Notes: generated from the letters alone by a model not told the origin. Shown: positions 45,759 to 63,139, counted from the first letter of the stretch. The stretch is 64,000 nt of DNA from Gemmatimonadales bacterium (GCA_041615815.1 JBFJCP010000007.1:72048-136047); one strand, 5' to 3'. Program-made: numbers and translations.

Positions 45759-45999
45759 AGGTTTAAGATGGGGCGGGTAGGAGTGAGGGGCTAGGGGTTC
45801 GGGGTTAGGGTTGCGGCATTCACGAGGACCCGCGTGATCGTGCTGGACGTCCTGCAGGTGCCAGTCGGGTGCGAGCGCATACGCTTGACGGTCCACTTGC
45901 CGTGACCTTTCCTGCAGGCTAACTCACGTCATCGGTTTCCCCAGGCTTCTCCGTCTTGCCCTGGGGCGGACTTCACGCCAGCACCGTTCGGAGCTTCTC

Positions 46000-48900
46000 A
46001 TGTTGCGACTGTCCCGAGTCTCCCCAGCGCCCATGCTGGGGATCGCGCTGCTCACGTTCCTCTCGCTACCACCGTCTGCACACGCGCAACAGATCGATCA
46101 GGACCAGATCGACCAACTCGAGTTCCGCCACATCGGTCCCGTCGGGAACCGTGTGTCCTCGGTTGCAGGAACATCGACCGACCCGCTCACCTACTTTGCC
46201 GGCGCGGCATCGGGTGGGATTTGGAAAACCGAAGACGGCGGTGTGAATTGGAAGCCGGTGTTCGACGATCAGCCGGTGCATTCCATTGGTGCGTTGGCCG
46301 TTGCTCCATCGGACGCCAACGTCGTGTGGGCGGGAACGGGCGAGACGTTCATCCGATCCAACGTGTCCATCGGGAACGGCGTGTGGAAGTCCACCGACGG
46401 TGGAGGGTCCTGGACGCACATGGGTCTCGAGGGAACGGGAAGAATTGGACGCATCGTCATCCATCCGACGAACCCCGAGGTCGTCTATGCCGCCGTCCTC
46501 GGACACGGGTACAGCCCACAGTCGAATCGCGGCGTCTATCGTAGCACCGATGGGGGCAGGAACTGGCAACAGGTGCTGTTCGTGAACGACTCCACGGGGG
46601 CTTCCGATCTCGTCATGGATCCCAACAATCCCCGGATTCTCTTTGCCGGCATGTGGCAGTTTCACCTCAAGACGTGGACGCGAGAGAGCGGCGGCGCTGG
46701 CAGTGGCCTCTATATGTCCAGAGATGGCGGCGACACGTGGAAGCGACTCGAGGCCCATGGCCTGCCCACCAAGCCCGTGGGAAAAATCGCTCTCTGCATG
46801 ACGCCCAAGAGCTCGAGCCGTGTGTATGCGCTCATCGAGACAGGCGATGGCGTTCCATGGCACGGCCAGGAAACCGAAAGCGGCGAACTGTGGCGCTCGG
46901 AGGACGGGGGTACGAACTGGAAGGTCGTGAGCCACAACCGCAACCTCGCGGGACGCAGTGCCTATTACTCCCGCTGCGCCGTCGCGCCCGACGACGCGGA
47001 CGAGGTGTACTTCCTCTCCGCGTCCTTCGCCGTCACCACGGACGGCGGTGACAGCGCCAAGACCGCCAACTTCTTCAATCCCACGGGCGTGTCCGCGCCG
47101 GGGTGGGACCATCACGACATGTGGATCGATCCCGGCAACGCGAATCGCATGATCGTCGGGCATGATGGCGGCGTCTCGGTCTCCCAGAATCGGGGGAAGA
47201 CGTGGTTCCGCATCCAGCTCCCAATTGCGCAGATGTATCACGTGACGGTGGACAACAACATCCCTTACTACGTTTACGGCAATCGCCAGGACGGGCCATC
47301 GCTACGTGGCCCGAGCCGGAGCCGACTTGGCGGGTTTTTTTCGCAAGGCATCCCACGGGGTATGTGGCACTCGTTGGGCGGCGGTGAGAGCGGATTTGCC
47401 ACGCCGGATCCCGAGGATCCCGACATCATCTGGTCCAGCGCATCGGGATGGGGAGCCCTTGGTGGCGTGGTGGTGCGCTACAACGAACGCACGCGGCAGT
47501 TTCGTCAGGTGGAGGTGTGGCCGCTCATGACCGCTGGCTGGCCGGCGAAAGACGTGCGGTATCGCTTCCAGTGGACGTTCCCGCTGCTCATCTCACCGCA
47601 TGATCACAACACGGTGTACGTGACGAGTCAACACGTGCACCGCACCACCAATGGCGGTCAAACGTGGGAGGTGATCAGCCCCGATCTCTCGACGAACGAC
47701 ACCACCAAGCAGGGGATCTCCGGAGGTCTCACGCCGGACAACCTCGGCGTGGAGTACTGCTGTGTGATCTATGCGTTTGATGAATCGCCGGTGGAACGTG
47801 GCGTGCTCTGGGCCGGCACGAGCGATGGACTCGTGCACGTGAGCCGGGATAACGGCACCACGTGGACCAACGTGACTCGCAACATCCGCGGTCTTCCGGC
47901 ATGGGGGACCGTGCGGAATATCGACGCTTCGAAGTGGGATGCCGGCAAGGCCTATCTCACGGTGGATTTTCACGAGGTGGGGAACTTCGCACCCTACGTT
48001 TATAAGACGCAGGATTATGGGCGAAGCTGGACCAAGATCACGAGTGGCATTGCCGAGGGCCCGCTCAGCTACGCTCGCAACATCCGCGAAGATCCGGTGC
48101 GGCAGGGACTCCTCTATCTTGGTACCGAGAATGCGCTCTATGTCTCGTTTGACGATGGCGCCAGGTGGCAGTCGCTCAAGACCAATCTGCCGCCCGCGCC
48201 CGTGTACTGGATCGCCGTTCAGGAGCACTTCAACGATCTCGTAATCGGGACGTATGGCCGTGGGTTCTGGATCCTGGATGACGTCACACCGCTGCAGCAA
48301 CTCACCCCAAATGTTACCGCGTCCCAGGCGCACTTGTTCGAACCGCGCCCCGCATATCGGTTCCGGCCCATCACCGCGCCCATGACCATGTTCGACGATC
48401 CATCGGACGGGGACGATCCGGAAGACGGCGCGTCCATCAACTACTGGTTGGCCACCGAGCCCGGCGAGGTAAAGGTGCGAATCCGCGATGCCCGGGGCGA
48501 TACCGTGCGGATGCTCGACGGCACCAAGGAAGTCGGGATCAACCGCGTGTGGTGGGACTTCCGCGGCGAGGAATCCACCGAGATCAAGCTGCGGACCAAA
48601 CCGCTCTACGCCGACTGGATGAGCCTGGGCGAGGATCGTTGGCGTGAGGTCCCCGAAGAAAACAATCGGATATCGGTCTTGATGCCCCCGGGCGATTACA
48701 CGGTGACGCTCGTGGTGGACAGCCAGGAGGTGGGAACCCAGCAGTTGGAAGTTCGCAAGGATCCACATTCCGAAGGCACCATCGCGGACATCCAGGCGCA
48801 GACCGCGATGGCTGAAGACCTATGGACCGACATGAACGAGGCGGCGAAGATGGTGAACACCATCGAGTGGACCCGCCGGCAGCTCTCGGATTTCGAAGCC

Positions 48901-49257
48901 GTCTTGAAAGATCAGGATGCAGAAGCTGAGGTGCTCACCGCCCTCGACTCGCTCCACCAAAAGTTCATCGGGGTGGAGGAGCACCTCTTGCAGCTCCGTT
49001 TCACCGGCACGGGGCAGGATGACGTGCGATGGCCGATCAAGTTGGTGGGGCAGCTTGGATACCTGGCGGGTGAGGTCCAAACCGCTGACTTTGCACCGGC
49101 GGATCAACATCGCGAGGCTCATCAAGTCTTGAAAGACGACTTGCGCCGTACCCGGGACGCGCTCGACGCGATCATGCGGCTGGACCTCCCAGCCTTCAAT
49201 CAGATGCTACAGGAACGCAACCTGGCTCCGGTGATCGCCGCGGGAAGTCAGAAGTAG
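46000..49257 (+). CDS. VPS10/BNR-repeat sialidase-like glycosyl hydrolase
   Basis: Signal peptide; FRHIGP..NR; many S/T-x-D-G-G-x-x-W Asp-boxes. Confidence 0.88.
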   Translation: MLRLSRVSPAPMLGIALLTFLSLPPSAHAQQIDQDQIDQLEFRHIGPVGNRVSSVAGTSTDPLTYFAGAASGGIWKTEDGGVNWKPVFDDQPVHSIGALAVAPSDANVVWAGTGETFIRSNVSIGNGVWKSTDGGGSWTHMGLEGTGRIGRIVIHPTNPEVVYAAVLGHGYSPQSNRGVYRSTDGGRNWQQVLFVNDSTGASDLVMDPNNPRILFAGMWQFHLKTWTRESGGAGSGLYMSRDGGDTWKRLEAHGLPTKPVGKIALCMTPKSSSRVYALIETGDGVPWHGQETESGELWRSEDGGTNWKVVSHNRNLAGRSAYYSRCAVAPDDADEVYFLSASFAVTTDGGDSAKTANFFNPTGVSAPGWDHHDMWIDPGNANRMIVGHDGGVSVSQNRGKTWFRIQLPIAQMYHVTVDNNIPYYVYGNRQDGPSLRGPSRSRLGGFFSQGIPRGMWHSLGGGESGFATPDPEDPDIIWSSASGWGALGGVVVRYNERTRQFRQVEVWPLMTAGWPAKDVRYRFQWTFPLLISPHDHNTVYVTSQHVHRTTNGGQTWEVISPDLSTNDTTKQGISGGLTPDNLGVEYCCVIYAFDESPVERGVLWAGTSDGLVHVSRDNGTTWTNVTRNIRGLPAWGTVRNIDASKWDAGKAYLTVDFHEVGNFAPYVYKTQDYGRSWTKITSGIAEGPLSYARNIREDPVRQGLLYLGTENALYVSFDDGARWQSLKTNLPPAPVYWIAVQEHFNDLVIGTYGRGFWILDDVTPLQQLTPNVTASQAHLFEPRPAYRFRPITAPMTMFDDPSDGDDPEDGASINYWLATEPGEVKVRIRDARGDTVRMLDGTKEVGINRVWWDFRGEESTEIKLRTKPLYADWMSLGEDRWREVPEENNRISVLMPPGDYTVTLVVDSQEVGTQQLEVRKDPHSEGTIADIQAQTAMAEDLWTDMNEAAKMVNTIEWTRRQLSDFEAVLKDQDAEAEVLTALDSLHQKFIGVEEHLLQLRFTGTGQDDVRWPIKLVGQLGYLAGEVQTADFAPADQHREAHQVLKDDLRRTRDALDAIMRLDLPAFNQMLQERNLAPVIAAGSQK

Positions 49258-50060: not shown

Positions 50061-50076
50061 TGGTACGGAAACTGCT
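50061..50076 (+). promoter_or_regulatory. Sigma-54 -24/-12 promoter upstream of the activator gene
   Basis: TGGTACGGAAACTGCT (GG-N10-GC). Confidence 0.65.
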
Positions 50077-50167: not shown

Positions 50168-51556
50168 GTGACTGAACCGACGATTCTCGTTGTGCAATTG
50201 TCCGAGGCGTTCAGCGGGTTCTGGCAGGACCTGGCGGCGGACCTCGGGGCGTCGGTGCAGTTATTAGAAATAGACGATACCCTTCAGGTGGCGCGGGAAG
50301 CCGCGGCATTGATCCTCGCAGCCGGCGGAACCGAGCGCGAAGCGGTGGATTGGTTGGACACGAAAGACGTGCCGGCTCATGTCCCCATCGTGGCTGTTGG
50401 AGCGGATCCTGGGCGCCGTATCACGGCGCAACTGGTGGGCCGTGGTGCCAAGGACTACTTCGCGCTTCCCAACGATGTCGAGCTGCTGCGAAACTCTCTC
50501 GCGACGATTATCTATCAGAGTAGACAGACAGCACAGATGGCGGCGCGGACAACGGATCTTGCCCGCGCCGATGCTTTTGCTGACATCGTGGGCGAGAGTC
50601 CGGCGCTCAAAGCCGTCTTGAACCGCGCCGCACGATTGCTCCCGCACACGAATGCGTCGGCCTTGGTACTGGGAGAGACGGGCACGGGGAAGGAACTGTT
50701 GGCCCGGGCATTACATGCCGGCGGGCCTCGTCGCAACGAGCCCTTTGTGGCCGTGAACTGTTCGGCACTCCCCGAGAACCTCGTTGAATCCGAGTTCTTC
50801 GGACACGAGAAGGGCTCGTTCACAAATGCGCACGCCGCCAAGCCAGGGTTGTTCGAGGTGGCGGACGGCGGAACGCTCTTTCTCGATGAAGTGGGCGAGC
50901 TCCCACTGGAACTCCAGGCCAAGCTGTTGCGTGTCTTGGATGACCAGCGGGTCCGCCGCGTCGGGGGCACGAAGTCTCGGAAGGTGGACGTGCGCATCCT
51001 CGCAGCCACCAACAACAATCTCGAGGCGGCGGTGAAGCGCGGCACGTTCCGTCAGGACCTGTTCTTCCGGTTGAGTGTCGTGACGCTCCACCTGCCGCCC
51101 CTGCGACAACGCGGTGAAGACGTGATTCAAATTGCCAACGCGCTGATCGAGACGTTGGCGAAACGCCACGGCATTCCCGCGCCGACGCTCCCCCGATCCG
51201 TTCACAAGGACCTACTCGCTGCGCGTTGGCCGGGCAACGTCCGCCAACTCAAGAATGCCGTCGAACGTGCGTTATTGCTCGCTCCACCGGGTGAGCTGTG
51301 CGTCGAAGAGCTGCTCGCGGAATCCACCCCAGAGTTACCTACCACGCCGTCGGCGCAACCACTCGCCTTGCCCGCGTCCCTGGACGACATCATGCAGGCT
51401 GCCGCCCGTGCCACACTCGAATTCTGCGAGGGCAACCGGTCAGAAGCAGCTCGGCGGTTGGGCATCTCACGGCGGCGGCTCCGGCGTCTCCTCAACGAAG
51501 GTGCCGACAGCGACGAAGAACTCACAGAGCTCACCTCAATTGGTGTGTCGGCGTAG
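50168..51556 (+). CDS. Sigma-54-dependent enhancer-binding protein with pseudo-receiver domain
   Basis: GETGTGKE, VNCSA, ESEFFGHEKGSFTNA, LFLDE, WPGNVRQL, Fis-type HTH GNRSEAARRLGIS. Confidence 0.93.
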   Translation: MTEPTILVVQLSEAFSGFWQDLAADLGASVQLLEIDDTLQVAREAAALILAAGGTEREAVDWLDTKDVPAHVPIVAVGADPGRRITAQLVGRGAKDYFALPNDVELLRNSLATIIYQSRQTAQMAARTTDLARADAFADIVGESPALKAVLNRAARLLPHTNASALVLGETGTGKELLARALHAGGPRRNEPFVAVNCSALPENLVESEFFGHEKGSFTNAHAAKPGLFEVADGGTLFLDEVGELPLELQAKLLRVLDDQRVRRVGGTKSRKVDVRILAATNNNLEAAVKRGTFRQDLFFRLSVVTLHLPPLRQRGEDVIQIANALIETLAKRHGIPAPTLPRSVHKDLLAARWPGNVRQLKNAVERALLLAPPGELCVEELLAESTPELPTTPSAQPLALPASLDDIMQAAARATLEFCEGNRSEAARRLGISRRRLRRLLNEGADSDEELTELTSIGVSA

Positions 51557-51813: not shown

Positions 51814-51829
51814 TGGAACGGCTCGTGCT
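51814..51829 (+). promoter_or_regulatory. Sigma-54 -24/-12 promoter of the lipoprotein operon
   Basis: TGGAACGGCTCGTGCT, AT-rich tract upstream. Confidence 0.65.
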
Positions 51830-51875: not shown

Positions 51876-52565
51876 ATGCCAAAGCTTCGCCAGTTCCTCG
51901 CTGCTCTTGGAATGACGTTACTCGTCGCCGCGTGCGCCGACAGCACGGCGCCGGTCTCCGAGAGTCCGTTGTTCGCGAAGGGAGGCAACCGCGTCTCGCT
52001 GGAACCCACCGTTCTTGGAGAGGACGTCCTTCCCGAATCCGACCTCGGTGACGTGGTGGACGGTGCGGGGAATGTCTTCACCCTGGTCGTCCCCGAAGGC
52101 ACGATCGCGCAAGCGCCCCTTGCACCGGAACTCCAGAGCTATCACCACGAGTTCCAAGTCGAGCAGGGCAAGCGAGCCAGCTATGCGGTCCTGTACACGA
52201 CGCTCGACGTCTTCATGGACATCGACGTACCCGCGAGCGCGCAGCTGGTGGATGACAACGGTCGGAGACTCAAACGCGGCGAGCGGGTCACCGTACACAT
52301 CGACATCGACCCCGTCTCGTTCGCCGTTCGGTTTCTCCCGCATGGGATCACGTTCCCGCAGAAGCCTGCTGATCTGACGTTCGGGCTGACGTTTGCGGAT
52401 TGGTCCGACCATCCGATCCGGGACGCCAACGATCTCACAATGTGGTATCAGCCGGTGACCGGCACCGACTGGACTGAGTTGGACAACGCCGTTGAGTTCG
52501 AGTTTCTCGGGCTCTGGGCCCATACGACGCTCGATCATTTCTCGAACTATGCCATCGCGTGGTGA
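51876..52565 (+). CDS. ZU5-like lipoprotein 1 (ends HFSNYAIAW)
   Basis: Lipobox VAAC; FLPHGITF..P.DL; terminal HFS motif. Confidence 0.8.
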   Translation: MPKLRQFLAALGMTLLVAACADSTAPVSESPLFAKGGNRVSLEPTVLGEDVLPESDLGDVVDGAGNVFTLVVPEGTIAQAPLAPELQSYHHEFQVEQGKRASYAVLYTTLDVFMDIDVPASAQLVDDNGRRLKRGERVTVHIDIDPVSFAVRFLPHGITFPQKPADLTFGLTFADWSDHPIRDANDLTMWYQPVTGTDWTELDNAVEFEFLGLWAHTTLDHFSNYAIAW

Positions 52566-52608
52566 GGCCATGAGGCCGATGACGCGCGTGACTCGAAAGG
52601 AACAGACG

Positions 52609-53301
52609 ATGTCGAAGGGTTTGCTACGGATTAGCCTGTTGGCGGGTGCGCTCGTCCTGGGCTGTGCCGAGGGGACTGCACCGGTGGCTGAGCTGCCGCA
52701 GGAACCCGAGAACGCACTGCACTTCTTGAGCTGGGATCCGGCCAACGGTCCGGTGGACTTCGCTGCTTTCGGCGCGACCCCCTACGGACCAATCGATTTT
52801 GTGGACCAGCCGCTCCGCGCCGTGGGAGACTCCGTTCTCGTCGACAGCTACGCGGTGAGCTTCTGGGCTGTCCGCGGCGAGCAGCGGTTCATCCAAATCA
52901 ACTACATCGATTCGCTGGGTGCGGTCGAGTCGCCGTACGTGCGCTTCGACGTCAGCGATCCCGTACAGCGACCGAACGGGAGCGGCATTGCCGTGGGTGA
53001 TTCGGTGCTCATCACGGTCTCAGTGGATCCCACCGACATCGTGGTGCGCTTTGAACCGTCGGGATTGCAGTTCGGTAACGCTTCCGAGCTCCAGATGTGG
53101 TACGGCGGAGCCAGCGACGACCTGAACGGCGACGGATCGGTCGACAGCACCGATGCCGATATCCAGCAAAACCAACTGGGAATGTGGTGGCAGGAACAGC
53201 CTATCGATCCCTGGGATTCCATCATCGCCGACCACTCAATCGAGCTGGAATGGTTCCGCGCCTGGCTCGAGCACTTTTCCGGCTACGCAGTCTCCTGGTA
53301 G
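52609..53301 (+). CDS. ZU5-like lipoprotein 2 (ends HFSGYAVSW)
   Basis: Lipobox VLGC; FEPSGLQF; DLNGDGSVDSTD loop. Confidence 0.8.
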   Translation: MSKGLLRISLLAGALVLGCAEGTAPVAELPQEPENALHFLSWDPANGPVDFAAFGATPYGPIDFVDQPLRAVGDSVLVDSYAVSFWAVRGEQRFIQINYIDSLGAVESPYVRFDVSDPVQRPNGSGIAVGDSVLITVSVDPTDIVVRFEPSGLQFGNASELQMWYGGASDDLNGDGSVDSTDADIQQNQLGMWWQEQPIDPWDSIIADHSIELEWFRAWLEHFSGYAVSW

Positions 53302-53305
53302 TCGT

Positions 53306-54517
53306 ATGACGAACACGAGTAGAGTCCTGCTGCTAGGACTTGCGCCACTCACGTTGGCATTCCTCGCCGCCTGCGGTGAAGCCATCGCCCCGCAGCCTGG
53401 CACGCCGGGTGAGGAACCGCCTGCTCCCCCCCCGCCGGTGGTCACTCCGAAGACGGCGGCGACCGTGCACCATCTCCGCTGGAGCGAGTCCGGTGGGCCG
53501 TCGCAGGTGGCCCCCAGCCTCGGCCAGAGCCAGCAGCCACCGGTGACCGAGTTGTATCTCGCGGGGACCGGCGTTCCGCGGGGATCATTGGCACAGTCCG
53601 CCCCGAGTGCATCGGTGCTTCCGAATTACGACCCCGGCCGCGACGCTTTTCCTGGTTTGCTGCTTCAAGCGACCGACAACGGCCTCATGGAATCGGATCC
53701 CGTCAAATACCAGAAGTGGGTGGGAGGCCCGAGCCCGATCGACGTGGACGGACCTGTCTCACTCGTCCTGTGGAGTGCGATGCAGGATTTTGACCAAGAC
53801 GACAACGGCGTGGTGCATGCCGGCTTGTTCGAGTGCGACGCGGGTGGATCCAACTGCGACCCCATCGTGCAAGCGACGCTCAAGCTCGATCCGTGGAGCG
53901 GTTCGAGTTCGTGGGTGGAACGCACCATCGACTTCGGTCCGGTGACGCGCAGCGTCCCCCCTGGGCGTGTCCTAGCCGTCAAAATCGTTGTTGAGGAAAA
54001 CGACATGTGGTTCGCTTACGGGACCACAGCGCAGCCGAGCCGGCTCGCCTTTAGTGGTCCCAAGCCGGTGCCCTACGAGGTGAGCGTGTGGGCAGTGCGT
54101 GGGGAACAGCGCTCGGTCGACATCAACAACCAGGCCACCGGGAATCCCTTTTTGCAGCTCGACGTCTTCGATCCGGTTCAGCTGTCTGACGGTACGCCGA
54201 TCGGCGTTGGCGACTCCGTGATGCTCACCGTGACGGTCGACCCCGAAAAGCTCGTCGTCTCGCTGGAGCCTTCCGGCATCACCTTTGGGCAGGAGCCCAC
54301 CCAGCTCCGGATGTGGTACAGCGATGCCGATCCCGACTTCAACGGCGACGGCGTGGTGGACGACGAAGACGTCCGCATTGAGAACGACCTCCTGGAGGTC
54401 TGGTACCAGGAAGTCGCTGGGGCCCCCTGGGAGACCATCGTGGCCATCAAGTCGGCCGAGGACGGGTCGTTCACGGCGGTGCTGGACCACTTCTCGAATT
54501 ACGCCGTTGCTTGGTAG
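53306..54517 (+). CDS. ZU5-like lipoprotein 3 with inserted domain (ends HFSNYAVAW)
   Basis: Lipobox LAAC; Pro-rich linker; LEPSGITF; DFNGDGVVDDED. Confidence 0.8.
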   Translation: MTNTSRVLLLGLAPLTLAFLAACGEAIAPQPGTPGEEPPAPPPPVVTPKTAATVHHLRWSESGGPSQVAPSLGQSQQPPVTELYLAGTGVPRGSLAQSAPSASVLPNYDPGRDAFPGLLLQATDNGLMESDPVKYQKWVGGPSPIDVDGPVSLVLWSAMQDFDQDDNGVVHAGLFECDAGGSNCDPIVQATLKLDPWSGSSSWVERTIDFGPVTRSVPPGRVLAVKIVVEENDMWFAYGTTAQPSRLAFSGPKPVPYEVSVWAVRGEQRSVDINNQATGNPFLQLDVFDPVQLSDGTPIGVGDSVMLTVTVDPEKLVVSLEPSGITFGQEPTQLRMWYSDADPDFNGDGVVDDEDVRIENDLLEVWYQEVAGAPWETIVAIKSAEDGSFTAVLDHFSNYAVAW

Positions 54518-54521
54518 GTAC

Positions 54522-55133
54522 ATGAAGCCTTCAGCGCGACACACACCCCGGACGAAGGCGGCAGCCGGCATTGCCCTGGTCCTCGCCGTCGGAGCCTGCG
54601 GCCAGGCGGGAACTCCCGTCGAACCGAGCACCCCGACGGTGAACGTGACCTTACCGGCCGGCACGCTCGCACACATTCCGAGCGCGCCACCGCTCGAGAC
54701 GCTGGACACATCCTTCGTGGTTGTGCAAGGTCGCGGCGGAACGTTCAAGGTCTCCTACCTCAAGGACCAAGACGATTCTGGTCCCAGCTGGTTTCTCAGA
54801 ATCTCTATCCCAGGAACTGCCGAGCTGGTCGATGCCAATGGTCGCTCGCTGATTGCAGGCGACACGCTTCGGATCACCGTACAAATCGATCCCACGCGGT
54901 TCCTAGCATCGTTCAGTCCACATGGAACGCAGTTTCTCGGGATGCAGCCGGTGACCCTGGCGTTCAACTACACGCATGCGGACCTGAGCGACCGGGACCC
55001 ATCGGATCTCGAAATTTGGTATCAGGCGCTCGGAGACGATCCCTGGGCGCCAGAACCGAGCAGCGTGGACGTACGGCAGAACATGGTGTCCATGACGCTC
55101 GAGCACTTTTCCAACTACGCAGTGGCTTGGTAG
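54522..55133 (+). CDS. ZU5-like lipoprotein 4 (ends HFSNYAVAW)
   Basis: Lipobox VGAC; FSPHGTQF...PVTL. Confidence 0.8.
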   Translation: MKPSARHTPRTKAAAGIALVLAVGACGQAGTPVEPSTPTVNVTLPAGTLAHIPSAPPLETLDTSFVVVQGRGGTFKVSYLKDQDDSGPSWFLRISIPGTAELVDANGRSLIAGDTLRITVQIDPTRFLASFSPHGTQFLGMQPVTLAFNYTHADLSDRDPSDLEIWYQALGDDPWAPEPSSVDVRQNMVSMTLEHFSNYAVAW

Positions 55134-55143
55134 AAGGTAGAGG

Positions 55144-57153
55144 ATGACGACGCAACCAATATCTGTTGAACGGGCCTGCGAACTCGCGGCGGCGGGACAC
55201 CACGCCGAGTTGCTCGCGTATCTGGGTGAGTGGCCCCTGGAGTCGATCGCGGACTCCCCAACGCTGTCGCTGTTGTACGGTACGGCACACGCTCGGCTTG
55301 GACGGCACGACGACGGGATTCACTGGGTGGATCTGGCGCTGGCCCGCGCCCGATCGCGCGACCAACGCGCCGTGGAAACCCGAGCACTCAACACTCGAGG
55401 TGCAATCGCCTTTGTGGCCGGTGAAATCGATGAAGCGTCGGACTTTTTCACGCAGGCGTTGCTGACCGCCAGCCGGGACGGCGATCATGCAACCATCGGC
55501 CGATGCTCCAACAACCTGGGGATCATCAACAATCTCCGCGGCCGCTACGCCGAAGCCATTGGGTCGTATTCCATGGCCATCGCGGCATTCGAGCGGGCGG
55601 AACTGCCACAGGGGATGGCCGAGGCACATCACAATCTCGGCATCACCTACGCCGAACAGAACCAATTCGATCGAGCGCTCGAGGAGACGGAAGCAGCCCA
55701 TCGGGACGCCGCGGCTGCGGGAGACGAGACCCTCGCCGCCATGACGGTGCGAGGTCGCGCCGAGATCCGCGTCTTCCTCGGCGAGCTGGACGAAGCGGAA
55801 CACGACATCACCGCTGCGCTCGCCGAACATCGCCGCCTGAGCGACCGGGTCGAGGAGGCGCAGGATCTTCGAATACAGGCGCTGATCAACTTGCGGAAAG
55901 GCGATGCGGACGGGGCCGAGAAGACTCTTCGAGACGTCATCACGAGCGCGGAAGCCCTGGGCCGGCCGCAGCTCGTGGCCGAAGCACGGCGGGATCTCGC
56001 CCATGTGCTGCGGGCGAAAGATCGTTACGACGAAGCGCTCGAGACAGCACGGGCCGCCATCCGACTGTTCGAACAGCTCGGAGCGGAAGGAGAAGTCCGC
56101 AAGCTGGACAGCCACGACTGGGGCTACCCCCTCGCGAAGGAGTTGAAGCGGTCGCTCGAGCCGCTCCACGCAGCGCAAAAGCTTGCCAACATGGGACGGT
56201 ACCAGGAGCTCATGACCTACCTCCAGGACCGCTCCTACGAAGATCTCAAGCAGTCTCCCACTCTCGCGCTCCTCCGGGGAATCGGACACGCCCGTCTTGG
56301 CGAGTTGGACGAGGGTTGGCAGTGGATCATGATTGCGCTCAATCGCGCCCGCCTTCTCGGGGATCGGGCGGTCGAGGTGCGAGCGCTCAACGTCTACGGC
56401 GCCATCGCGCTCGAACGGGGCGGGATCGACGAAGCCACGTACTTCTTCACCTGCGTGCAAGCACAGGCGATGGAGTCCGGTGACCTCGCCACCGTGGGGC
56501 GCTGCGCCAACAACCTCGGCATCATTGCCAACATGCAAGGCGACCACGGGCGAGCCGTGGGCGCCTACACGATGGCGCTGGCAGCATATCAGCGTGCAGG
56601 ACTTGGTCGCGGTGTGGCCGAAACCCGTCACAACCTGGGCATCACATATCGCGACAAGGGCGATCTCATCCGCGCGATGCAAGAAGCGGATGATGCCGTC
56701 GAGGCAGCCAAACAGCTAGAAGACGCCGCGCTGCATGCACAGGCATTAGCCGGCCGCGCCGAGATCAGGATCGCGCGCGGCGAGGCCGCCATCGCGATTC
56801 GCGAGGCAGAACGCGCGCTGGCGCTCCACGAGGAGCTCGGAGACGAGGTGCGACAAACCGAGGATCTCAGGATTCTCGGGTGCGCACTCGCCCAGGCGTG
56901 CCGTTTTGACGAAGCCGCAGTGAAGCTCCGGGACGTGATCGCGCGGGGGAAAGCGCATGACCGACCGCTGTTAATAGCCAGTGCGCAGCGGGACCTCGCC
57001 CACCTCCTGGATCAGACCAGCCAGCGAGACGAAGCCTATCACCTTGCCGTTGAGGCACGCGAGGCGTTCGACCGACTAAACGCCCACGGGGAAGTCCAGA
57101 AGCTGGACGCCCTGCTCGCCACCTATCCTCACGACGCCCAAGCACGGGCATGA
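55144..57153 (+). CDS. Cytoplasmic TPR protein with tandem duplication of a ~330-aa module
   Basis: RALNTRG/RALNVYG, NNLGII, HNLGITY repeats; no signal peptide. Confidence 0.88.
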   Translation: MTTQPISVERACELAAAGHHAELLAYLGEWPLESIADSPTLSLLYGTAHARLGRHDDGIHWVDLALARARSRDQRAVETRALNTRGAIAFVAGEIDEASDFFTQALLTASRDGDHATIGRCSNNLGIINNLRGRYAEAIGSYSMAIAAFERAELPQGMAEAHHNLGITYAEQNQFDRALEETEAAHRDAAAAGDETLAAMTVRGRAEIRVFLGELDEAEHDITAALAEHRRLSDRVEEAQDLRIQALINLRKGDADGAEKTLRDVITSAEALGRPQLVAEARRDLAHVLRAKDRYDEALETARAAIRLFEQLGAEGEVRKLDSHDWGYPLAKELKRSLEPLHAAQKLANMGRYQELMTYLQDRSYEDLKQSPTLALLRGIGHARLGELDEGWQWIMIALNRARLLGDRAVEVRALNVYGAIALERGGIDEATYFFTCVQAQAMESGDLATVGRCANNLGIIANMQGDHGRAVGAYTMALAAYQRAGLGRGVAETRHNLGITYRDKGDLIRAMQEADDAVEAAKQLEDAALHAQALAGRAEIRIARGEAAIAIREAERALALHEELGDEVRQTEDLRILGCALAQACRFDEAAVKLRDVIARGKAHDRPLLIASAQRDLAHLLDQTSQRDEAYHLAVEAREAFDRLNAHGEVQKLDALLATYPHDAQARA

Positions 57154-57241
57154 CATGCCGTCTCCGCCTGGATCGCCACGCCCCGGTTGGTTCACCACGA
57201 ACCACCGAACCGCCTCGGGGATAATCATACAACGTGTTTTC

Positions 57242-57254
57242 TAACAATCACTTA
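57242..57254 (+). promoter_or_regulatory. IHF-like site
   Basis: TAACAATCACTTA, one mismatch to WATCAA-N4-TTR, just upstream of a sigma-54 motif. Confidence 0.45.
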
Positions 57255-57269
57255 CGCGACTCTCTGCGC

Positions 57270-57285
57270 TGGAACGGGTTCTGCG
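57270..57285 (+). promoter_or_regulatory. Sigma-54 -24/-12 promoter of the second lipoprotein-TPR unit
   Basis: TGGAACGGGTTCTGCG. Confidence 0.65.
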
Positions 57286-57345
57286 TTTTATCGCTGCGGA
57301 TCGCAACGACGGAATTCGACTGTGCACAGTAAAGGGAGACGAGCC

Positions 57346-58041
57346 ATGTCCCACCTCCGGTGGACACTGACAACCGCGCTGATGCTGGGACTAGTGTCGT
57401 GCGCCGACACCATCGCTCCGGTGAGCGACGTTGCACGAGACAGCGGTCCGCGGCATCTGCGGTGGGCCACGACCAACACGCTGGGCTTCACCGCCAACGC
57501 GGGCATGCCCGGGGGCGAACTTCCGTTGGCGACCCCGCCGATGCACGCCACGGCAGGAGACTCGCTGGCCCTCAATACCTACGCGGCGAGCTTCTGGGCC
57601 GTTCGGGGAGAGCGACGCTTCGTCCAGATCGACTACCTGAACACGATGGACCCGACCAACACATACCCGTTCCTGCACCTGAGCATCGCGAATCCGATCA
57701 CGAGACCAAACGGAGCCGCCATCGCCCAAGGCGACTCGGTCCTGATTACCGTTACGGTGGATCCGGTGGAATTGGTCGCGTACTTGGAGCCGTCGGGGCT
57801 GCAGTTTGGCACCAGCGATTCCACCACGATCAAGATCTGGTACACGGGTGCGGACGGCGACTTCAACGGTGACGGCGTCGTAGACGACGAAGACGCGTAC
57901 ATCGAGAGCCAGATGATGGGCGTGTGGTACCAAGAGGAACTGCTAGCCCCGTGGGAAGCCATCGCTTCCACCGGCAATTTGGCAGAGAAGTGGTTCGCGG
58001 CGGTTCTCGAGCACTTCTCCGGCTACGCGATCTCCTGGTAA
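57346..58041 (+). CDS. ZU5-like lipoprotein 5 (ends HFSGYAISW)
   Basis: Lipobox LVSC; LEPSGLQF; DFNGDGVVDDED. Confidence 0.8.
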   Translation: MSHLRWTLTTALMLGLVSCADTIAPVSDVARDSGPRHLRWATTNTLGFTANAGMPGGELPLATPPMHATAGDSLALNTYAASFWAVRGERRFVQIDYLNTMDPTNTYPFLHLSIANPITRPNGAAIAQGDSVLITVTVDPVELVAYLEPSGLQFGTSDSTTIKIWYTGADGDFNGDGVVDDEDAYIESQMMGVWYQEELLAPWEAIASTGNLAEKWFAAVLEHFSGYAISW

Positions 58042-58056
58042 CGAGGAACACGCTGG

Positions 58057-60054
58057 ATGCTGCAGTTCCGACCCACTCTCGATAAGGCACGCCACCTCGC
58101 CGACGCGGGGCGCTTCGCCGAGGTCATCGAGTTCCTCGATGAGCGGCCCCGGGAAGAGATCGAGGCGTCGTCTGCACTGTCGCTCCTCTACGGGATGGCG
58201 CATGCTCGTCTGGGCCGTTCTGACAAGGGCAAGCGCTGGGTCGAGTTCGCGCTGGCGCGGGCGAGGGAACGCGAGGAGGAGGACGTTGAGATCCGTGCTC
58301 TCAACACGCGGGGGGCCATCGCGTTCGTGAGCGGCCGCATCGATCAGGCAGCGGACTACTTCACGCAGGGCTTGCTGGCAGCCAGCCGCGCCGGTGATCA
58401 CACCGTCATCGGGCGCTGCTCCAACAATCTCGGCAGCATCAACAATCTGCGGGGACGCCACGCCGAAGCGGTGGCGGCGCACGCTCTGGCGGTGGCCGCG
58501 TTCCAGCGGGCGGGGGATCATCGGGGTGTTGCGGAGGCACGCCACAACATGGGCATTTCGCTCCGCGAGCAGCGCCGATTGGACGAGGCGCTCCGGGAGG
58601 CGACGTCCGCCCGCGCCGAGGCAGTGAAAGCTGGTGATCTCACCCTCGCAGCCATGACGCTGCGAGGTCAGGCCGAGATTCACGTGGATGGCGAAGACCT
58701 GGACGTCGCCCAGGACGCCATCCAAGAGGCGCTGCGCGAGCACCGAGACCTGAAGGATGCCGTAGAGGAGGCGCAAGACCTCCGTATCGTTTCCGCCATT
58801 CACGCCGCCCGGGGGGAGAGCGGCGCGGCGGAAACGATGCTGTTGGAGGTCATCGCCCGCGCCAAGTCGCAGGACCGGCCGCTCCTCGTCGCGGAGGCAA
58901 CCCGCGATCTCGCATACGTCCTTCGCAGACAAAAGCGGCAGGCTGCGGCGCTGGACGCGGCGCGGTCAGCGATCGCGCAGTTTGAGCGCCTTGGCGCCGA
59001 AGCCGAGGTGCGAAAGCTCGACAGCCACGAGTGGGGATACCCGCTTCGTATGGATCTCGCACGGTCGCTCGAGCCACTCCACGAAGCGCAGCGCCTCGCG
59101 GACGCTGGACACTACGCCGACCTGGTGGAGCACCTCCGTTGCCTCCCAGAGGAGATCCTCGAACAGTCGCCGACCCTGGCGCTGCTCTACGGCATTGGTC
59201 TGGCCCGCTTGGGCCGCCTGGAAGCAGCGGAGCAGTGGACCATGATCGCGCTCGCCCGATCGCGGGCAACGGGTGATCGGGCGGTCGAGGTTCGCGCGCT
59301 CAACGCCTATGGCGCGATCGCACTGGACCGAGGGGGGATCGACGCCGCCGTCGAGTTCTTCACCAAGGCCCAGGAAGAAGCGATGCGGGAAGGCGACCTC
59401 GAAACCGTCGCCCGAGCGGCCAACAACCTCGGCATCGTCGCCAATATGCAGGGCGACTATGGGCGTGCCGTGGGATCCTACACGATGGCGCTCGCCGCCT
59501 ATCAACGAGCAGGATTCGAGCGGGGAGTGGCCGAAACCCATCACAATCTCGGCATCACGTATCGGGATCAGGGCAGTCTGGTGGAGGCGATGAGCGCCGC
59601 GGATCGAGCTGTGTCCGACGCCGAGCGGCTCGGGGACCGGTCACTGGAAGCGCAGACCATCGCTGGCAGGGCGGAGATTCGCCTGGCCCGCCAGGAGCCG
59701 CAGCTCGCCCACTTGGAAGCCAAGCGAGCCGCAGATATCCATCGGGATCTCGGCGACACCGTGCGGGAGAGCGAAGACTTGCGAATCCTGGCCGGTGCCA
59801 TGGCGGCGGCGGACCGGTATGACGACGCGGAACGCTTGTTGACCGACGTGATCCAACGGGCCACGGAACACCATCGCCCACTCCTCGCAGCCACGGCGCA
59901 GCGTGATCTCGCCCAACTGCTCGACCGTCTCGCACGCACGCACGAGGCGCGGACGATGGCGGAGCAAGCACGCGCCACCTTCGATCGCCTCGGGGCCCGG
60001 GTACAGGTCGAGCGCATCGACGCGTTCCTCGCGCGGCCACACCTGGCGGCGTAG
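58057..60054 (+). CDS. Cytoplasmic TPR protein, paralog of 55144..57153
   Basis: Same two-module layout; shared linker KLDSH[DE]WGYPL...RSLEPLH.AQ. Confidence 0.88.
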   Translation: MLQFRPTLDKARHLADAGRFAEVIEFLDERPREEIEASSALSLLYGMAHARLGRSDKGKRWVEFALARAREREEEDVEIRALNTRGAIAFVSGRIDQAADYFTQGLLAASRAGDHTVIGRCSNNLGSINNLRGRHAEAVAAHALAVAAFQRAGDHRGVAEARHNMGISLREQRRLDEALREATSARAEAVKAGDLTLAAMTLRGQAEIHVDGEDLDVAQDAIQEALREHRDLKDAVEEAQDLRIVSAIHAARGESGAAETMLLEVIARAKSQDRPLLVAEATRDLAYVLRRQKRQAAALDAARSAIAQFERLGAEAEVRKLDSHEWGYPLRMDLARSLEPLHEAQRLADAGHYADLVEHLRCLPEEILEQSPTLALLYGIGLARLGRLEAAEQWTMIALARSRATGDRAVEVRALNAYGAIALDRGGIDAAVEFFTKAQEEAMREGDLETVARAANNLGIVANMQGDYGRAVGSYTMALAAYQRAGFERGVAETHHNLGITYRDQGSLVEAMSAADRAVSDAERLGDRSLEAQTIAGRAEIRLARQEPQLAHLEAKRAADIHRDLGDTVRESEDLRILAGAMAAADRYDDAERLLTDVIQRATEHHRPLLAATAQRDLAQLLDRLARTHEARTMAEQARATFDRLGARVQVERIDAFLARPHLAA

Positions 60055-60383: not shown

Positions 60384-62048
60384 ATGAAGCACACGCGATG
60401 GTACTCGGCTCTGCTGTCCCTGATCCTCCTCCTCGGCATGTGGGCCTGCAGCCCCAAGGCCGCCTGCGACGACGAAGCGTGCGGAACCCTGGTGGTGGTC
60501 ACGACAGCGGAAGCCGACGTCCTATTGCCGCCGGCGACGCGGAGCGATATTGGCGTCGGACTCACCGACCTCATCTTCACCAAGCTCGCGGACCTGGGAC
60601 CGGAATTGAACACCGTAGGGGATGAGGGGTTCACACCCCTTCTCGCCAACGATTGGGTGTTCGAAGACTCCTTGACGATTGCGTTCAAGATCCATCCCGA
60701 TGCGGAGTGGCACGACGGTGCGCCGGTCACCGCCACCGACGTGACCTTCACGTTCGAGGTCTACCGTGACTCGGCCATCAACTCGTCGGCGCGCCAGCGG
60801 CTTGGCCGCATTGCCTCCGTGACTGCGCGAGACGAGCGCACAGCCATCTTTCGATTCACCGAGGTCTACGCCGAGCAGTTCTTCGACGCCGTCTATCACA
60901 TGCGGATCCTGCCGCGTCATATCCTCGAGTCAGTCCCAATGGACCAGCTGGCCACCCACGCGTTTGGGCGTGAGCCTGTGGGGGCCGGCCCGTACCGCTT
61001 CGTTCGCTGGGACACTGGTGAGCTGGTGGAGCTCGAAGCAGACAGTGCGTTCTTTCTCGGGCGCCCCGGGGTCAAGCGTCTGATCTGGCGTTTCACCGCC
61101 GATCCCAACGCGGCCATTACCCATCTGGTAGCCGGGGAGGCCGACGTCATGGGATCCCTGGGCGGCCCCACCAACGTAGATCGGGTGACCGCCACGGAGC
61201 ATCTGCGGGCCGTTCCCTATCCAGTCCCGGTCTACATGTTCGTGGGTTTCAATCTCCGCGATCCCAAGAACGCCGGGCGCCCTCACCCTCTCTTTGCAGA
61301 CCGGGAAGTCAGACGCGCCGTTAGCATGGCCGTGGATCGAGCGGCGCTCGTTCGAGCCGTATTGGGTGAATACGGAAACGTCCCCGTGGGGCCTGCAACG
61401 CGACCATTGTGGATTTGGGACGACGGGATCGAACAACTGCCGTTCGACACCGCGGCCGCCCGTCGTGAGCTCGCGAGCCTCGGGTGGCAGGATAGCGACC
61501 AAAACGGCGTGCTGGACCGACAAGGCCGCGCATTCACCTTCGAACTCCTGGTGCCGGTGTCCAGCGGACTCCGGCGTCAAGCAGCGGTGATCGTGAAAGA
61601 GCAGTTGGCCCGCGTGGGCATCGACATGAAGATCCACGAGCTCGAGTTCAACACGTTCTTTGCCCGCTCGTCGTCCGGACAATTCGACGCACACTTCGGT
61701 GCCTGGGGGCAGGACCCAAGCCCTGCCTCGATAGCGGATACGTGGACCACCGCGGCCGTGGGCAATCTCAATTTCGGCTCGTATTCGAACCGGGAAGTGG
61801 ACGGCCTCATCCGCGAAGCCATGCGAGCCCCGAATCCGGCGCAGGCCAAAGCCCGTTGGCACGAGGCGCTGTCGACTCTGAACGCGGACCCTCCAGCAAT
61901 ATGGTTGCTGGAACCGGTGGCCGTTGCCGGCGTGCACCAGCGGTTCGAGGATGTCTCGATTCGTACCGATCAGTGGGCAGCGGATCTCTGGACGTGGCGC
62001 GTAGCGCGGGGTCGCATGATCGAGCGGGATCTGTTGGCGCGGCAGTGA
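60384..62048 (+). CDS. Peptide ABC transporter substrate-binding lipoprotein (OppA/DppA, SBP family 5)
   Basis: Lipobox MWAC; WHDGAPVTATDVTFT; PVGAGPYRF; VRRAVSMAVDR. Confidence 0.92.
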   Translation: MKHTRWYSALLSLILLLGMWACSPKAACDDEACGTLVVVTTAEADVLLPPATRSDIGVGLTDLIFTKLADLGPELNTVGDEGFTPLLANDWVFEDSLTIAFKIHPDAEWHDGAPVTATDVTFTFEVYRDSAINSSARQRLGRIASVTARDERTAIFRFTEVYAEQFFDAVYHMRILPRHILESVPMDQLATHAFGREPVGAGPYRFVRWDTGELVELEADSAFFLGRPGVKRLIWRFTADPNAAITHLVAGEADVMGSLGGPTNVDRVTATEHLRAVPYPVPVYMFVGFNLRDPKNAGRPHPLFADREVRRAVSMAVDRAALVRAVLGEYGNVPVGPATRPLWIWDDGIEQLPFDTAAARRELASLGWQDSDQNGVLDRQGRAFTFELLVPVSSGLRRQAAVIVKEQLARVGIDMKIHELEFNTFFARSSSGQFDAHFGAWGQDPSPASIADTWTTAAVGNLNFGSYSNREVDGLIREAMRAPNPAQAKARWHEALSTLNADPPAIWLLEPVAVAGVHQRFEDVSIRTDQWAADLWTWRVARGRMIERDLLARQ

Positions 62049-62197: not shown

Positions 62198-62947
62198 TCA
62201 GCACCCAATCCGCGTTCCCTTCCCCATCGGCTCGTTGTCGGTGACCCCGCACTCCGAGCGATGCTCGTCCCGACGGCCGAGGACCGCCACTTCGGCGGGT
62301 CGCTCGTCACCGCTACAGGCATTGCCGACTCCGCGATCGTCCGGGCAAGAGAGCAGGAGGGCGCAGGCAACGAGATGTCGTAGCTCCTCCCGGCACGCCG
62401 CGGTGTCGAGGCTCACGGGTCTTCCCCACCGTTGGTGCGGTCGTGGGAACAGAACCGGGACTTGCCCCGCGGCCTGAATCTCTCGCCGCGACCACCAACA
62501 GCCCACCTCCGCGGAGACTTGCACCATCTGGATAGGGGGCGCGCGGGGCCGTTGGGCCTCCCGCACGTCCGTGGCCGAGAGGTAGCATCCGTACTCCGGT
62601 GCTTCCGAAGCCGTACGGGGGTGATTGTGCCAGAGCACGAGGGTCGCAGACGGGCATGACTGGTATTGAACCTGATTGGCCGTAGCGCGTTGGATGGATG
62701 GCCGCCACGCTAGATCGATCAGCGCCTCCCCATCTTCAACCACACCAATCAAGCACCGCACGGTCTCGACACCCAGCGTATCCGCGAGGGCGTCGAGCTC
62801 TTCCACGACGTGCGGGGCGAGGATCAGACGAAACGACTTGGTGCTAGTGGACGGGGGATCCTGCAGCGTGGAGACGCTGTGCGCCTGCTGCGCTCCCACC
62901 GGAGCGGCAATCAAGAAAGCCATCAGCAGTACGAACTCACGTCTCAT
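62198..62947 (-). CDS. Secreted protein with JAB/MPN-like metalloenzyme motif
   Basis: Signal peptide; E(TVRCLIG), WHNHP, LSATD; Cys-rich. Confidence 0.65.
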   Translation of the reverse strand: MRREFVLLMAFLIAAPVGAQQAHSVSTLQDPPSTSTKSFRLILAPHVVEELDALADTLGVETVRCLIGVVEDGEALIDLAWRPSIQRATANQVQYQSCPSATLVLWHNHPRTASEAPEYGCYLSATDVREAQRPRAPPIQMVQVSAEVGCWWSRREIQAAGQVPVLFPRPHQRWGRPVSLDTAACREELRHLVACALLLSCPDDRGVGNACSGDERPAEVAVLGRRDEHRSECGVTDNEPMGKGTRIGC

Positions 62948-63073
62948 GTTGTCCACCCCAAGGGGGTACGAAAAAGCGCTCACATCACAGGTGGAATAGG
63001 CTCTCCTCTTTCTTCTCATCGATTCCCAAAGGCCGAGACCCGATTCGAACCGAATCTCCCAAGACCTCGGTTT

Positions 63074-63089
63074 TGCAATAAGAGTGCCA
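63074..63089 (-). promoter_or_regulatory. Sigma-54 -24/-12 promoter upstream of the JAB-like gene
   Basis: Minus strand TGGCACTCTTATTGCA, near-consensus. Confidence 0.8.
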
Positions 63090-63106
63090 ACTGCCACGCC
63101 CGCCCC

Positions 63107-63139
63107 AAAAACGCCCCGCAACCCAAAGGCTGCGGGGCG
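63107..63139 (-). terminator. Rho-independent terminator
   Basis: Minus strand CGCCCCGCAGCC-TTTG-GGTTGCGGGGCG followed by TTTTT. Confidence 0.75.

Follow-up and report, generated by a model that had tools for sequence, protein, structure and literature searches.

A candidate peptide-signalling module with a putatively self-cleaving ZU5/GAIN-type lipoprotein precursor in the phylum Gemmatimonadota

The window analysed here, a stretch of 64,000 nucleotides (nt) from a Gemmatimonadales bacterium (GCA_041615815.1, JBFJCP010000007.1:72048-136047), carries five lipoprotein genes with a shared C-terminal sequence, in an array that lies between the gene for a sigma-54 activator and two genes for TPR proteins (Table 1). 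The whole is best explained, with somewhat more confidence than doubt on our part, as a peptide-signalling module with a self-cleaving precursor, comparable to the RRNPP systems. The module itself is real and probably undescribed; no description of it was found among open PubMed Central papers and bioRxiv. An earlier note on this DNA had proposed a ZU5/GAIN-like domain with a cleavage site ahead of a seven-residue terminal strand, and the strand itself as a possible product. The likeness of fold is borne out by two structural comparisons of a model (Foldseek and an exhaustive search), the register of the site and the length of the strand by structural alignment and tail counts, and the strand as product by the persistence of the motif without the fold in mini-lipoproteins and very short open reading frames (micro-ORFs). 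What that interpretation overlooked were the adjacent TPR genes, the sigma-54 activator, the sigma-54-type promoters and the known autoproteolysis at HF/S in bacteria.

All five open reading frames (ORFs) translate into proteins that end in HFSxYAxxW, as had been claimed, with the terminal consensus HFS[NG]YA[IV][AS]W-stop. In alignment, each possesses a hydrophobic N-terminal stretch and an aligned Cys, and the motifs P-x-G-x-x-F and W-x-Q...W, likewise pointed out earlier, are invariant. The common C-terminal domain comprises about 155 residues and is 27-46% identical to that of lipoprotein 2. A looser form of the terminal motif, [NGEDQR][YF][AV][VIL][ASG][WY]-stop, is found at seven places in the 4.19 Mb genome, and three shuffled versions gave 0, 0 and 2 occurrences; the seven sites are six copies of the lipoprotein and one unrelated 14-residue frame. 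The sixth copy lies on another contig of the same genome (L001:6771-7433; G000:C43). A sigma-54-like site precedes it by 132 nt, the ORFs listed nearby include no TPR gene, and it could signal in trans. A distant lipoprotein homologue at G000:C19:61538-62626 (minus strand; E 5e-5) has neither the HFS motif nor a terminal aromatic residue. Among Pfam, NCBIfam and PDB sequences no family covers the domain, Pfam returned no ZU5 or GPS match to the window lipoproteins, and a word-indexed protein search with lipoprotein 4 (P0004) retrieved P0004 as its sole match.

The fold is recognisable from structure. An AlphaFold2 model of the lipoprotein 4 domain has a pLDDT of 95.7, and Foldseek places ankyrin ZU5 first (E 3e-4; TM 0.50-0.57), followed by the ZU5 domain of ZO-1, GAIN domains and UNC5b. 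Exhaustive comparison with 48,161 chains again puts ZU5 domains at the top (Z 9.6, 9.4 and 9.1; root-mean-square deviation 2.5-3.8 over 109-121 residues), with lower scores for UNC5b (7.4), GAIN (6.5-6.9), CARD8 (6.5), NLRP1 (6.1) and Nup98 (4.4). The nearest named cluster in the Atlas is also ZU5 (score 0.87, a lead only). We assign the modelled domain to the ZU5/GAIN superfamily, its fold being predicted with high confidence. Work by Liao et al. in 2014, said to treat GAIN, ZU5 and Nup98 homologues, may mention such proteins.

The same superposition locates a putative cleavage site. Known sites involve S1213 of NLRP1 and H862 of Nup98 (PMC3210808) and H381-L382/T383 of GPR56 (PMC13123842). 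With the register read from the first and last aligned residues only, the N-terminal fragments of NLRP1 (ending at 1212) and GPR56 (ending at 382) end on Phe150 of the model and Nup98 residue 870 falls on Trp157, so that Ser151 of the model matches the known nucleophiles. In the window copies, the turn that leads into the last strand carries H-x-[STC], which lines up with these sites. Further, the nucleophile column holds Ser, Cys or Thr in all 138 aligned relatives, and the 143 locus homologues with a recognisable motif divide into 96 with Ser, 34 with Thr and 13 with Cys. In peptides encoded without the fold (see below) this position is relaxed, W, L, Y, A and G being seen, which suggests that the fold needs Ser, Thr or Cys for cutting and that the receptor does not need them for binding, as a catalytic role would lead one to expect. 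From fold, register and nucleophile conservation we regard self-cleavage as likely in the five HFS copies of the window.

Some members carry additional features. A DxNGDGxVD loop, dockerin- or EF-hand-like, lies inside the domain of lipoproteins 2, 3 and 5, and lipoprotein 2 has a weak Dockerin match in Pfam (E 0.0024, below cut-off). In a clade whose members lack the His of the HFS motif, the Asp and Gly positions of this loop are 86-94% conserved; calcium might gate the ZU5/GAIN-type fold through it. Lipoprotein 3 has an extra domain ahead of the ZU5 domain (window 53528-54055, residues 75-250 of P0003), for which Pfam gave no match and the Atlas no confident one (best 0.81).

The family is found mainly in one phylum. 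A profile built from six copies has matches in 133 of the 301 Gemmatimonadota genomes that were sampled (the window's own genome and one unpublished genome included) and retrieves 1,311 representatives at the level of 50% identity. Named genomes were also scanned with a pattern; the best 80 of its 102 confirmed matches left 71 loci, all labelled as Gemmatimonadota or subgroups thereof except one unclassified, two Chloroflexi and two clostridial loci; the Atlas clusters agree with this range. Two loci, L173 and L211, hold typical family members in a record labelled Chloroflexi, possibly by mislabelling or transfer. The motif is recognisable in 142 of the 146 top representatives, and in 128 of these the stop follows exactly seven residues after the Phe. 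Long-tailed variants end 13-16 residues past the site, and some full-length genes duplicate or extend the tail while keeping a second copy of the motif at the free end. A lipoprotein signal, judged by pattern and not by SignalP, is found in 244 of 282 locus homologues, and up to six precursor genes are arrayed in one locus.

The partner genes encode proteins of 665-669 amino acids (aa), doubles of a module of about 330 aa that is single in many homologues, and no signal peptide or membrane helix was detected in either of the window TPR proteins. The module, with conserved Arg51, Asn83, Asn123, Asn124 and Asn164, has its best matches among TPRs that bind peptides, those of Pins/LGN (E 1e-29 to 1e-25) and kinesin light chain; profile and model comparisons also yield weaker matches to RapF (E 7e-9), other Rap proteins and NprR, bearing in mind that TPR folds match widely and that RapF and Pins/LGN are ranked here by E value. 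Linkage to the lipoproteins is tight in both directions. A TPR homologue is present in all 20 loci picked by the lipoprotein, and a ZU5 lipoprotein in 90 of 100 loci picked by the TPR protein (100 of 101 regions, taken from the best matches, in which relatives are not independent). Likewise, 60 of 69 named loci, which leave out the two clostridial ones and may overlap the TPR-picked set, contain the TPR gene. Of 127 distinct TPR genes, 103 are preceded by a partner at no more than 2.2 kb, and for 90 of these the distance is at most 100 nt. In 14 of the 69 named loci the TPR module is fused to an HD-GYP domain, and all five fusions that were checked have both TPR and HD domains, which marks the TPR module as a cytoplasmic input domain. 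At L145:188-2098 (minus strand), ZU5 homology and TPR share one open frame with no intervening stop, either a fusion or an assembly error.

The sigma-54 activator is the third regular component, occurring in 76 of the 100 TPR-picked, 15 of the 20 lipoprotein-picked and 47 of the 69 named loci. Its sigma-54 loop is intact, G[AS][FY]T[DGNS]A being kept in 91 of 92 aligned rows, and the receiver-like domain reads xxAAGGxE at the place which we take to be that of the phospho-Asp in receivers. Promoter-like sites were scored out of 12 against a sigma-54 consensus; top-scoring sites occur in 20 of 241 upstream regions as against 2 of 241 coding controls, and a score of 9 is also common in the controls (31 of 241).

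The terminal peptide is also encoded without the fold, again beside TPR genes. Ten TPR loci lack a ZU5 gene: two of them contain a mini-lipoprotein, five combine activator, TPR and an unrelated lipoprotein, and three show nothing of the kind. In the first two, the gene directly upstream encodes a lipoprotein of 62-64 aa made up of nothing more than a signal peptide, a linker and the ending ...DYAVSW or ...TGYAISW. Among 252 loci scanned, 27 distinct non-ZU5 frames have the motif at their end. A few of these are truncated ZU5 genes or due to chance, and the set includes six mini-lipoproteins of 56-73 aa and leaderless ORFs of 13-19 aa; overall, mini-lipoproteins span 56-97 aa and stand beside the same TPR family. 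Within one genus, 18 genomes carry an ORF of 13-17 aa ending in N[YF]AIGW after the TPR gene; 16 of these 18 have a ribosome site, with the start overlapping a TGA, and the set displays synonymous third-position changes, all three stop codons and in-frame changes of length. A peptide-first scan of metagenomes covered at least 133 loci, viral ones included. Among the matches listed, 23 non-ZU5 ORFs end in the motif, and 21 of these lie in one locus with the TPR family (13 micro-ORFs and three shortened lipoproteins among the 21); the ZU5 genes are accompanied by TPR in 41 of 75 cases, many of these loci being shorter than 1 kb. Six pattern matches on viral contigs gave no sign of the module by classification, and a stand-alone mini-peptide gene was not found in the window's own genome.

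Two further kinds of gene were noticed at such loci. Short frames ending in RH[CL][SA]NYAVAY or RRCSNYAVAY sit between lipoprotein genes at L053, L193, L195, L209, L213, L219, L254, L257 and L258, some with a ribosome site at 44-54 codons, and are a possible fourth type of precursor. The activator-TPR pairs without a ZU5 gene at L106 (G000:C10), L129, L133, L141 and L150 are preceded by a different lipoprotein of about 260 aa, in which the motif DPAT[AG]N[KT]GG.NE is conserved and the C-terminus is acidic; this lipoprotein may supply another ligand.

Co-variation between peptide and TPR points in the same direction. In 79 adjacent pairs, TPR residue 87 is larger than Ala or Gly in 11 of 11 cases in which peptide position 5 is Leu, compared with 1 of 68 otherwise. 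On the tree, 7 changes are counted for one trait and 8 for the other, with about seven origins, and about six of six independent pairs agree (median p 0.03); the correlation of the two columns is 0.87, the next best TPR column reaching 0.42. Residue 87 lies one helical turn from the conserved Asn83 and, judged by the way in which such TPRs bind an extended peptide, would sit where that peptide lies. Three other pairs (peptide W7 with TPR 50, V5 with TPR 127, and an acidic position 2 with TPR 229) had strong raw counts and were rejected, their independent-pairs median p being 1, 0.5 and 1. Taken with the linkage and the stand-alone peptide genes, the co-variation makes it quite likely, in our judgement, that the terminal heptapeptide is the ligand of the TPR protein.

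The closest functional parallels are the RRNPP systems (Rap/Phr, NprR/NprX, PlcR/PapR, Rgg/SHP, and RopB with leaderless peptides), in which the gene of a cytoplasmic TPR receptor adjoins that of an exported propeptide, the signal is formed by the last few residues of the propeptide, and tail duplications and leaderless variants occur. Published criteria for such systems name a propeptide of 10-100 aa, a secretion signal, a receptor of 250-500 aa with TPRs, and adjacent genes (PMC10075063). Measured against that account, the window precursors are too long at 203-403 aa, only the mini and micro forms of other genomes falling within the size range; a secretion signal is present as a lipoprotein-type signal, which counts under the paper's relaxed level; and the genes are adjacent, with gaps of 10 and 15 nt in the window. 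Unlike the RRNPP systems of Bacillota, the present one belongs to a diderm phylum and uses a folded, probably self-cleaving lipoprotein of 200-400 aa as precursor, while its TPR proteins, often doubled and closer to LGN/Pins than to Rap, lack a DNA-binding domain and pair with a sigma-54 activator or an HD-GYP domain.

In fold, cleavage register and the proposed retention of the cut strand up to the point at which the domain is pulled apart or degraded, the lipoproteins resemble the GAIN domains of adhesion GPCRs with their tethered agonist, the FIIND of NLRP1 and CARD8, Nup98 and PIDD; in those proteins the strand is fused to a receptor or effector, whereas in the window proteins the C-terminal product would consist of the strand alone, with a receptor that is a protein of its own in the cytoplasm. 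The ZU5 autopeptidases that Zhang et al. 2012 describe for bacterial polymorphic toxins (PMC3482391) are also ZU5-superfamily domains of exported proteins, but constitute the N-terminal processing domain of large RHS toxins, and no toxin, repeat or immunity gene occurs here. Self-cleavage at HF/S in bacteria has already been shown for MAIN domains (Brogan and Rudner, bioRxiv 10.64898/2026.05.12.724683), which have the same GAIN-B/ZU5-type fold and HF/S motif, belong to exported proteins and yield products expected to stay associated. According to that preprint, MAIN proteins average 158 kDa, with a large N-terminal cargo and a C-terminal wall anchor, and its main text, which contains no occurrence of Gemmatimonad, lipoprotein, TPR or quorum, appears to report no signalling role for the C-terminal piece. 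By contrast, the window proteins have 203-403 aa, an N-terminal lipid anchor, a free C-terminus seven residues after the site, and linked TPR genes with sigma-54 or HD-GYP output. Two clostridial proteins, taken as MAIN by their architecture, contain a domain with an internal HFSNYAVAY followed by SLH repeats, and match the family with a probability of 96% (E 3e-9) over 63 C-terminal columns. What is special in the present system is the free end right after the strand, not the strand sequence.

From these comparisons we infer the following circuit. Sigma-54 would transcribe the lipoprotein genes from the promoter-like sites ahead of them. The product, which bears an export signal, would be lipid-anchored, fold as the predicted ZU5/GAIN sandwich and cut itself between Phe and Ser by an N-O acyl shift, the heptapeptide S-[NG]-Y-A-[IV]-[AS]-W staying held as a beta-strand, like in MAIN and GAIN domains. 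Unfolding or degradation of the domain would free the peptide, with envelope stress, proteolysis, force and loss of calcium as candidate triggers, and the peptide would then reach the cytoplasm, probably via an oligopeptide ABC importer. This is the weakest step, and we favour release outside the cytoplasm followed by re-import only slightly. The family-5 solute-binding lipoprotein of the window, with no permease gene beside it, is a candidate peptide catcher whose membership of the system is uncertain. Inside the cell, the peptide may bind the Asn-ladder groove of the neighbouring TPR protein, which would act on the non-phosphorylated receiver to control the sigma-54 activator; in fused versions the controlled partner would be a c-di-GMP phosphodiesterase. 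Sigma-54 sites in front of these same genes would make the circuit feed back on itself. More tentatively, we suggest a phylum-wide diderm system in which a 'tethered agonist', already cut, is kept on the envelope by the ZU5/GAIN domain and set free only once that domain is pulled apart or degraded; the heptapeptide would then be imported, be read by the TPR protein and drive sigma-54 transcription or c-di-GMP breakdown, and a precursor that loses the fold would become a leaderless peptide or a constitutive propeptide of the quorum type.

Several observations weigh against this circuit. We know of no cleavage by ankyrin ZU5 domains, the closest solved folds, and the strand sequence is that of a generic MAIN last strand, so that its conservation alone proves nothing. 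The invariance of H-F-S, asserted by the earlier note, is true of the five window copies but fails in the wider family, where the His is replaced by G, S, Q or R (GF[ST], SF[ST]) in 61 of the 143 locus homologues with a motif (counted after four pattern mis-assignments had been moved); a compensating conserved His was sought in this His-less clade and not found. Mutation H381S blocks cleavage of GPR56 (PMC13123842), whereas Nup98 H862A/Q and the SF/S site of CARD8 are reported still to cleave (PMC3210808). According to the preprint (bioRxiv 10.64898/2026.05.12.724683), the cut strand of MAIN domains remains attached and came away only when SDS or heat was applied, hence release here needs a trigger. 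As to the genes, no route of export is apparent for the leaderless ones, whose action could be restricted to the cell interior, a homologue of the solute-binding protein is found in only 18 of 100 TPR-picked loci, and 10 of 100 TPR loci have no ZU5 gene, with a mini-precursor in only two of these ten. The pair of peptide position 5 and TPR residue 87 was chosen after a mutual-information scan, three of four tested pairs are not significant once kinship is allowed for, and the low diversity of the peptides leaves little room for strain-specific codes.

Part of this evidence would be met by the principal competing explanation, namely that the TPR protein binds the same motif on unexported or unfolded precursor and so gauges lipoprotein export or envelope-biogenesis stress. 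Cleavage and import would then be unnecessary and the leaderless peptides of 13-19 aa, which have no export signal, would be built-in cytoplasmic tuners; the missing His, the weak link to an importer and the tight coupling of lipoprotein and TPR genes are all in keeping with it. We nevertheless hold it to be unlikely, given that Ser, Thr or Cys is kept in every folded copy and relaxed in the stand-alone peptides, that arrays of up to six precursors and tail duplications are left unexplained, and that leaderless peptides are described as secreted signals in Bacillota (PMC10518010).

The heptapeptide could also be a re-imported TPR ligand that is cut out by ordinary periplasmic proteases, with the ZU5 fold as a mere protective cage and the Ser/Thr as a structural residue. 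Fold-less mini-lipoproteins must indeed be trimmed by other proteases, and the His-less clade and the long-tailed variants are easily accommodated. The exact register with known cleavage sites, the interchange of Cys, Ser and Thr to the exclusion of all else, and the HF/S cleavage reported for MAIN domains make this explanation, to our mind, quite improbable.

That the tail simply completes the sandwich, or represents an outer-membrane-type aromatic sorting signal, with TPR and activator merely co-regulated, finds some backing in the terminal W/Y/F, in the same strand sequence of MAIN-SLH proteins and in the importance of the last strand for fold stability in UNC5b (PMC3210808). We consider it very improbable: the motif persists beside TPR in genes without fold and without signal peptide, and co-varies across genes with TPR residue 87. 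The sorting signal, an alternative raised in the earlier note, is made unlikely in particular by the leaderless genes, which have the same C-terminus. Finally, a MAIN-type tether that sheds cargo under shear, to which the common fold and motif and the profile match to the clostridial domains might point, is nearly excluded because the architecture is inverted, with an N-terminal anchor, nothing after the strand in 128 of 142 representatives so that only seven residues could be shed, and no cargo domain in four of the five proteins.

If the peptide-signalling circuit is correct, peptide-TPR signalling, described for Bacillota, would extend to an abundant phylum with two membranes, in which both the precursor and the outputs differ, and the cut strand of a bacterial GAIN-like domain would gain a signalling role, a question that the MAIN preprint appears to leave open. 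It would also provide a small soluble model of tethered-agonist release, with a domain of 157 residues and a receptor module of 320 residues, in which peptide position 5 and TPR residue 87 form a natural specificity pair, and living genomes would show the interconversion of an adhesion-GPCR-like tethered strand and RRNPP-like pheromones.

Table 1. Genes and sites of the proposed module in the window, in order of position
Feature	Position	Strand	Remarks
Sigma-54 (-24/-12)-like promoter of activator gene	50061..50076	+	score 10/12; 107 nt before ORF start
Sigma-54 enhancer-binding protein	50168..51556	+	receiver-like domain without phospho-Asp, AAA+ domain, Fis-type helix-turn-helix; Pfam Sigma54_activat 1e-67, HTH_8
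Sigma-54-like promoter of lipoprotein operon	51814..51829	+	score 10/12; 62 nt before start
Lipoprotein 1 (P0001)	51876..52565	+	229 aa, ends DHFSNYAIAW; ZU5/GAIN-type domain; terminal peptide SNYAIAW 52542-52562
Lipoprotein 2 (P0002)	52609..53301	+	230 aa, ends EHFSGYAVSW; ZU5/GAIN-type domain with DxNGDG loop; SGYAVSW 53278-53298
Lipoprotein 3 (P0003)	53306..54517	+	403 aa, ends DHFSNYAVAW; extra domain (about residues 75-250) and ZU5/GAIN-type domain; SNYAVAW 54494-54514
Lipoprotein 4 (P0004)	54522..55133	+	203 aa, ends EHFSNYAVAW; modelled copy; putative site H195-F196/S197; SNYAVAW 55110-55130
TPR protein 1	55144..57153	+	two tandem Asn-ladder modules of ~330 aa; starts 10 nt after lipoprotein 4; proposed peptide receptor
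IHF-site-like sequence	57242..57254	+	1 mismatch to consensus; weak on its own
Sigma-54-like promoter of lipoprotein 5 and TPR 2	57270..57285	+	score 9/12; 76 nt before start
Lipoprotein 5 (P0005)	57346..58041	+	231 aa, ends EHFSGYAISW; ZU5/GAIN-type domain with DxNGDG loop; SGYAISW 58018-58038
TPR protein 2	58057..60054	+	two tandem modules; starts 15 nt after lipoprotein 5
Family-5 (oligopeptide-type) solute-binding lipoprotein	60384..62048	+	Pfam SBP_bac_5 5e-68; best NCBIfam match Opp4A, below cut-off

Three further ORFs of the window were noted in passing. Two of them, for which no link to the module was seen, encode a Ser/Thr kinase-like protein whose C-terminal part is a long stretch of repeats, as read from sequence (43068-45896, minus strand), and a Sortilin/BNR-repeat protein (46000-49257, plus strand). 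The third (62198-63121, minus strand) has no match in Pfam and carries an H-N-H-P...S-x-x-D motif, which we take to be like that of JAB/MPN metalloproteases.

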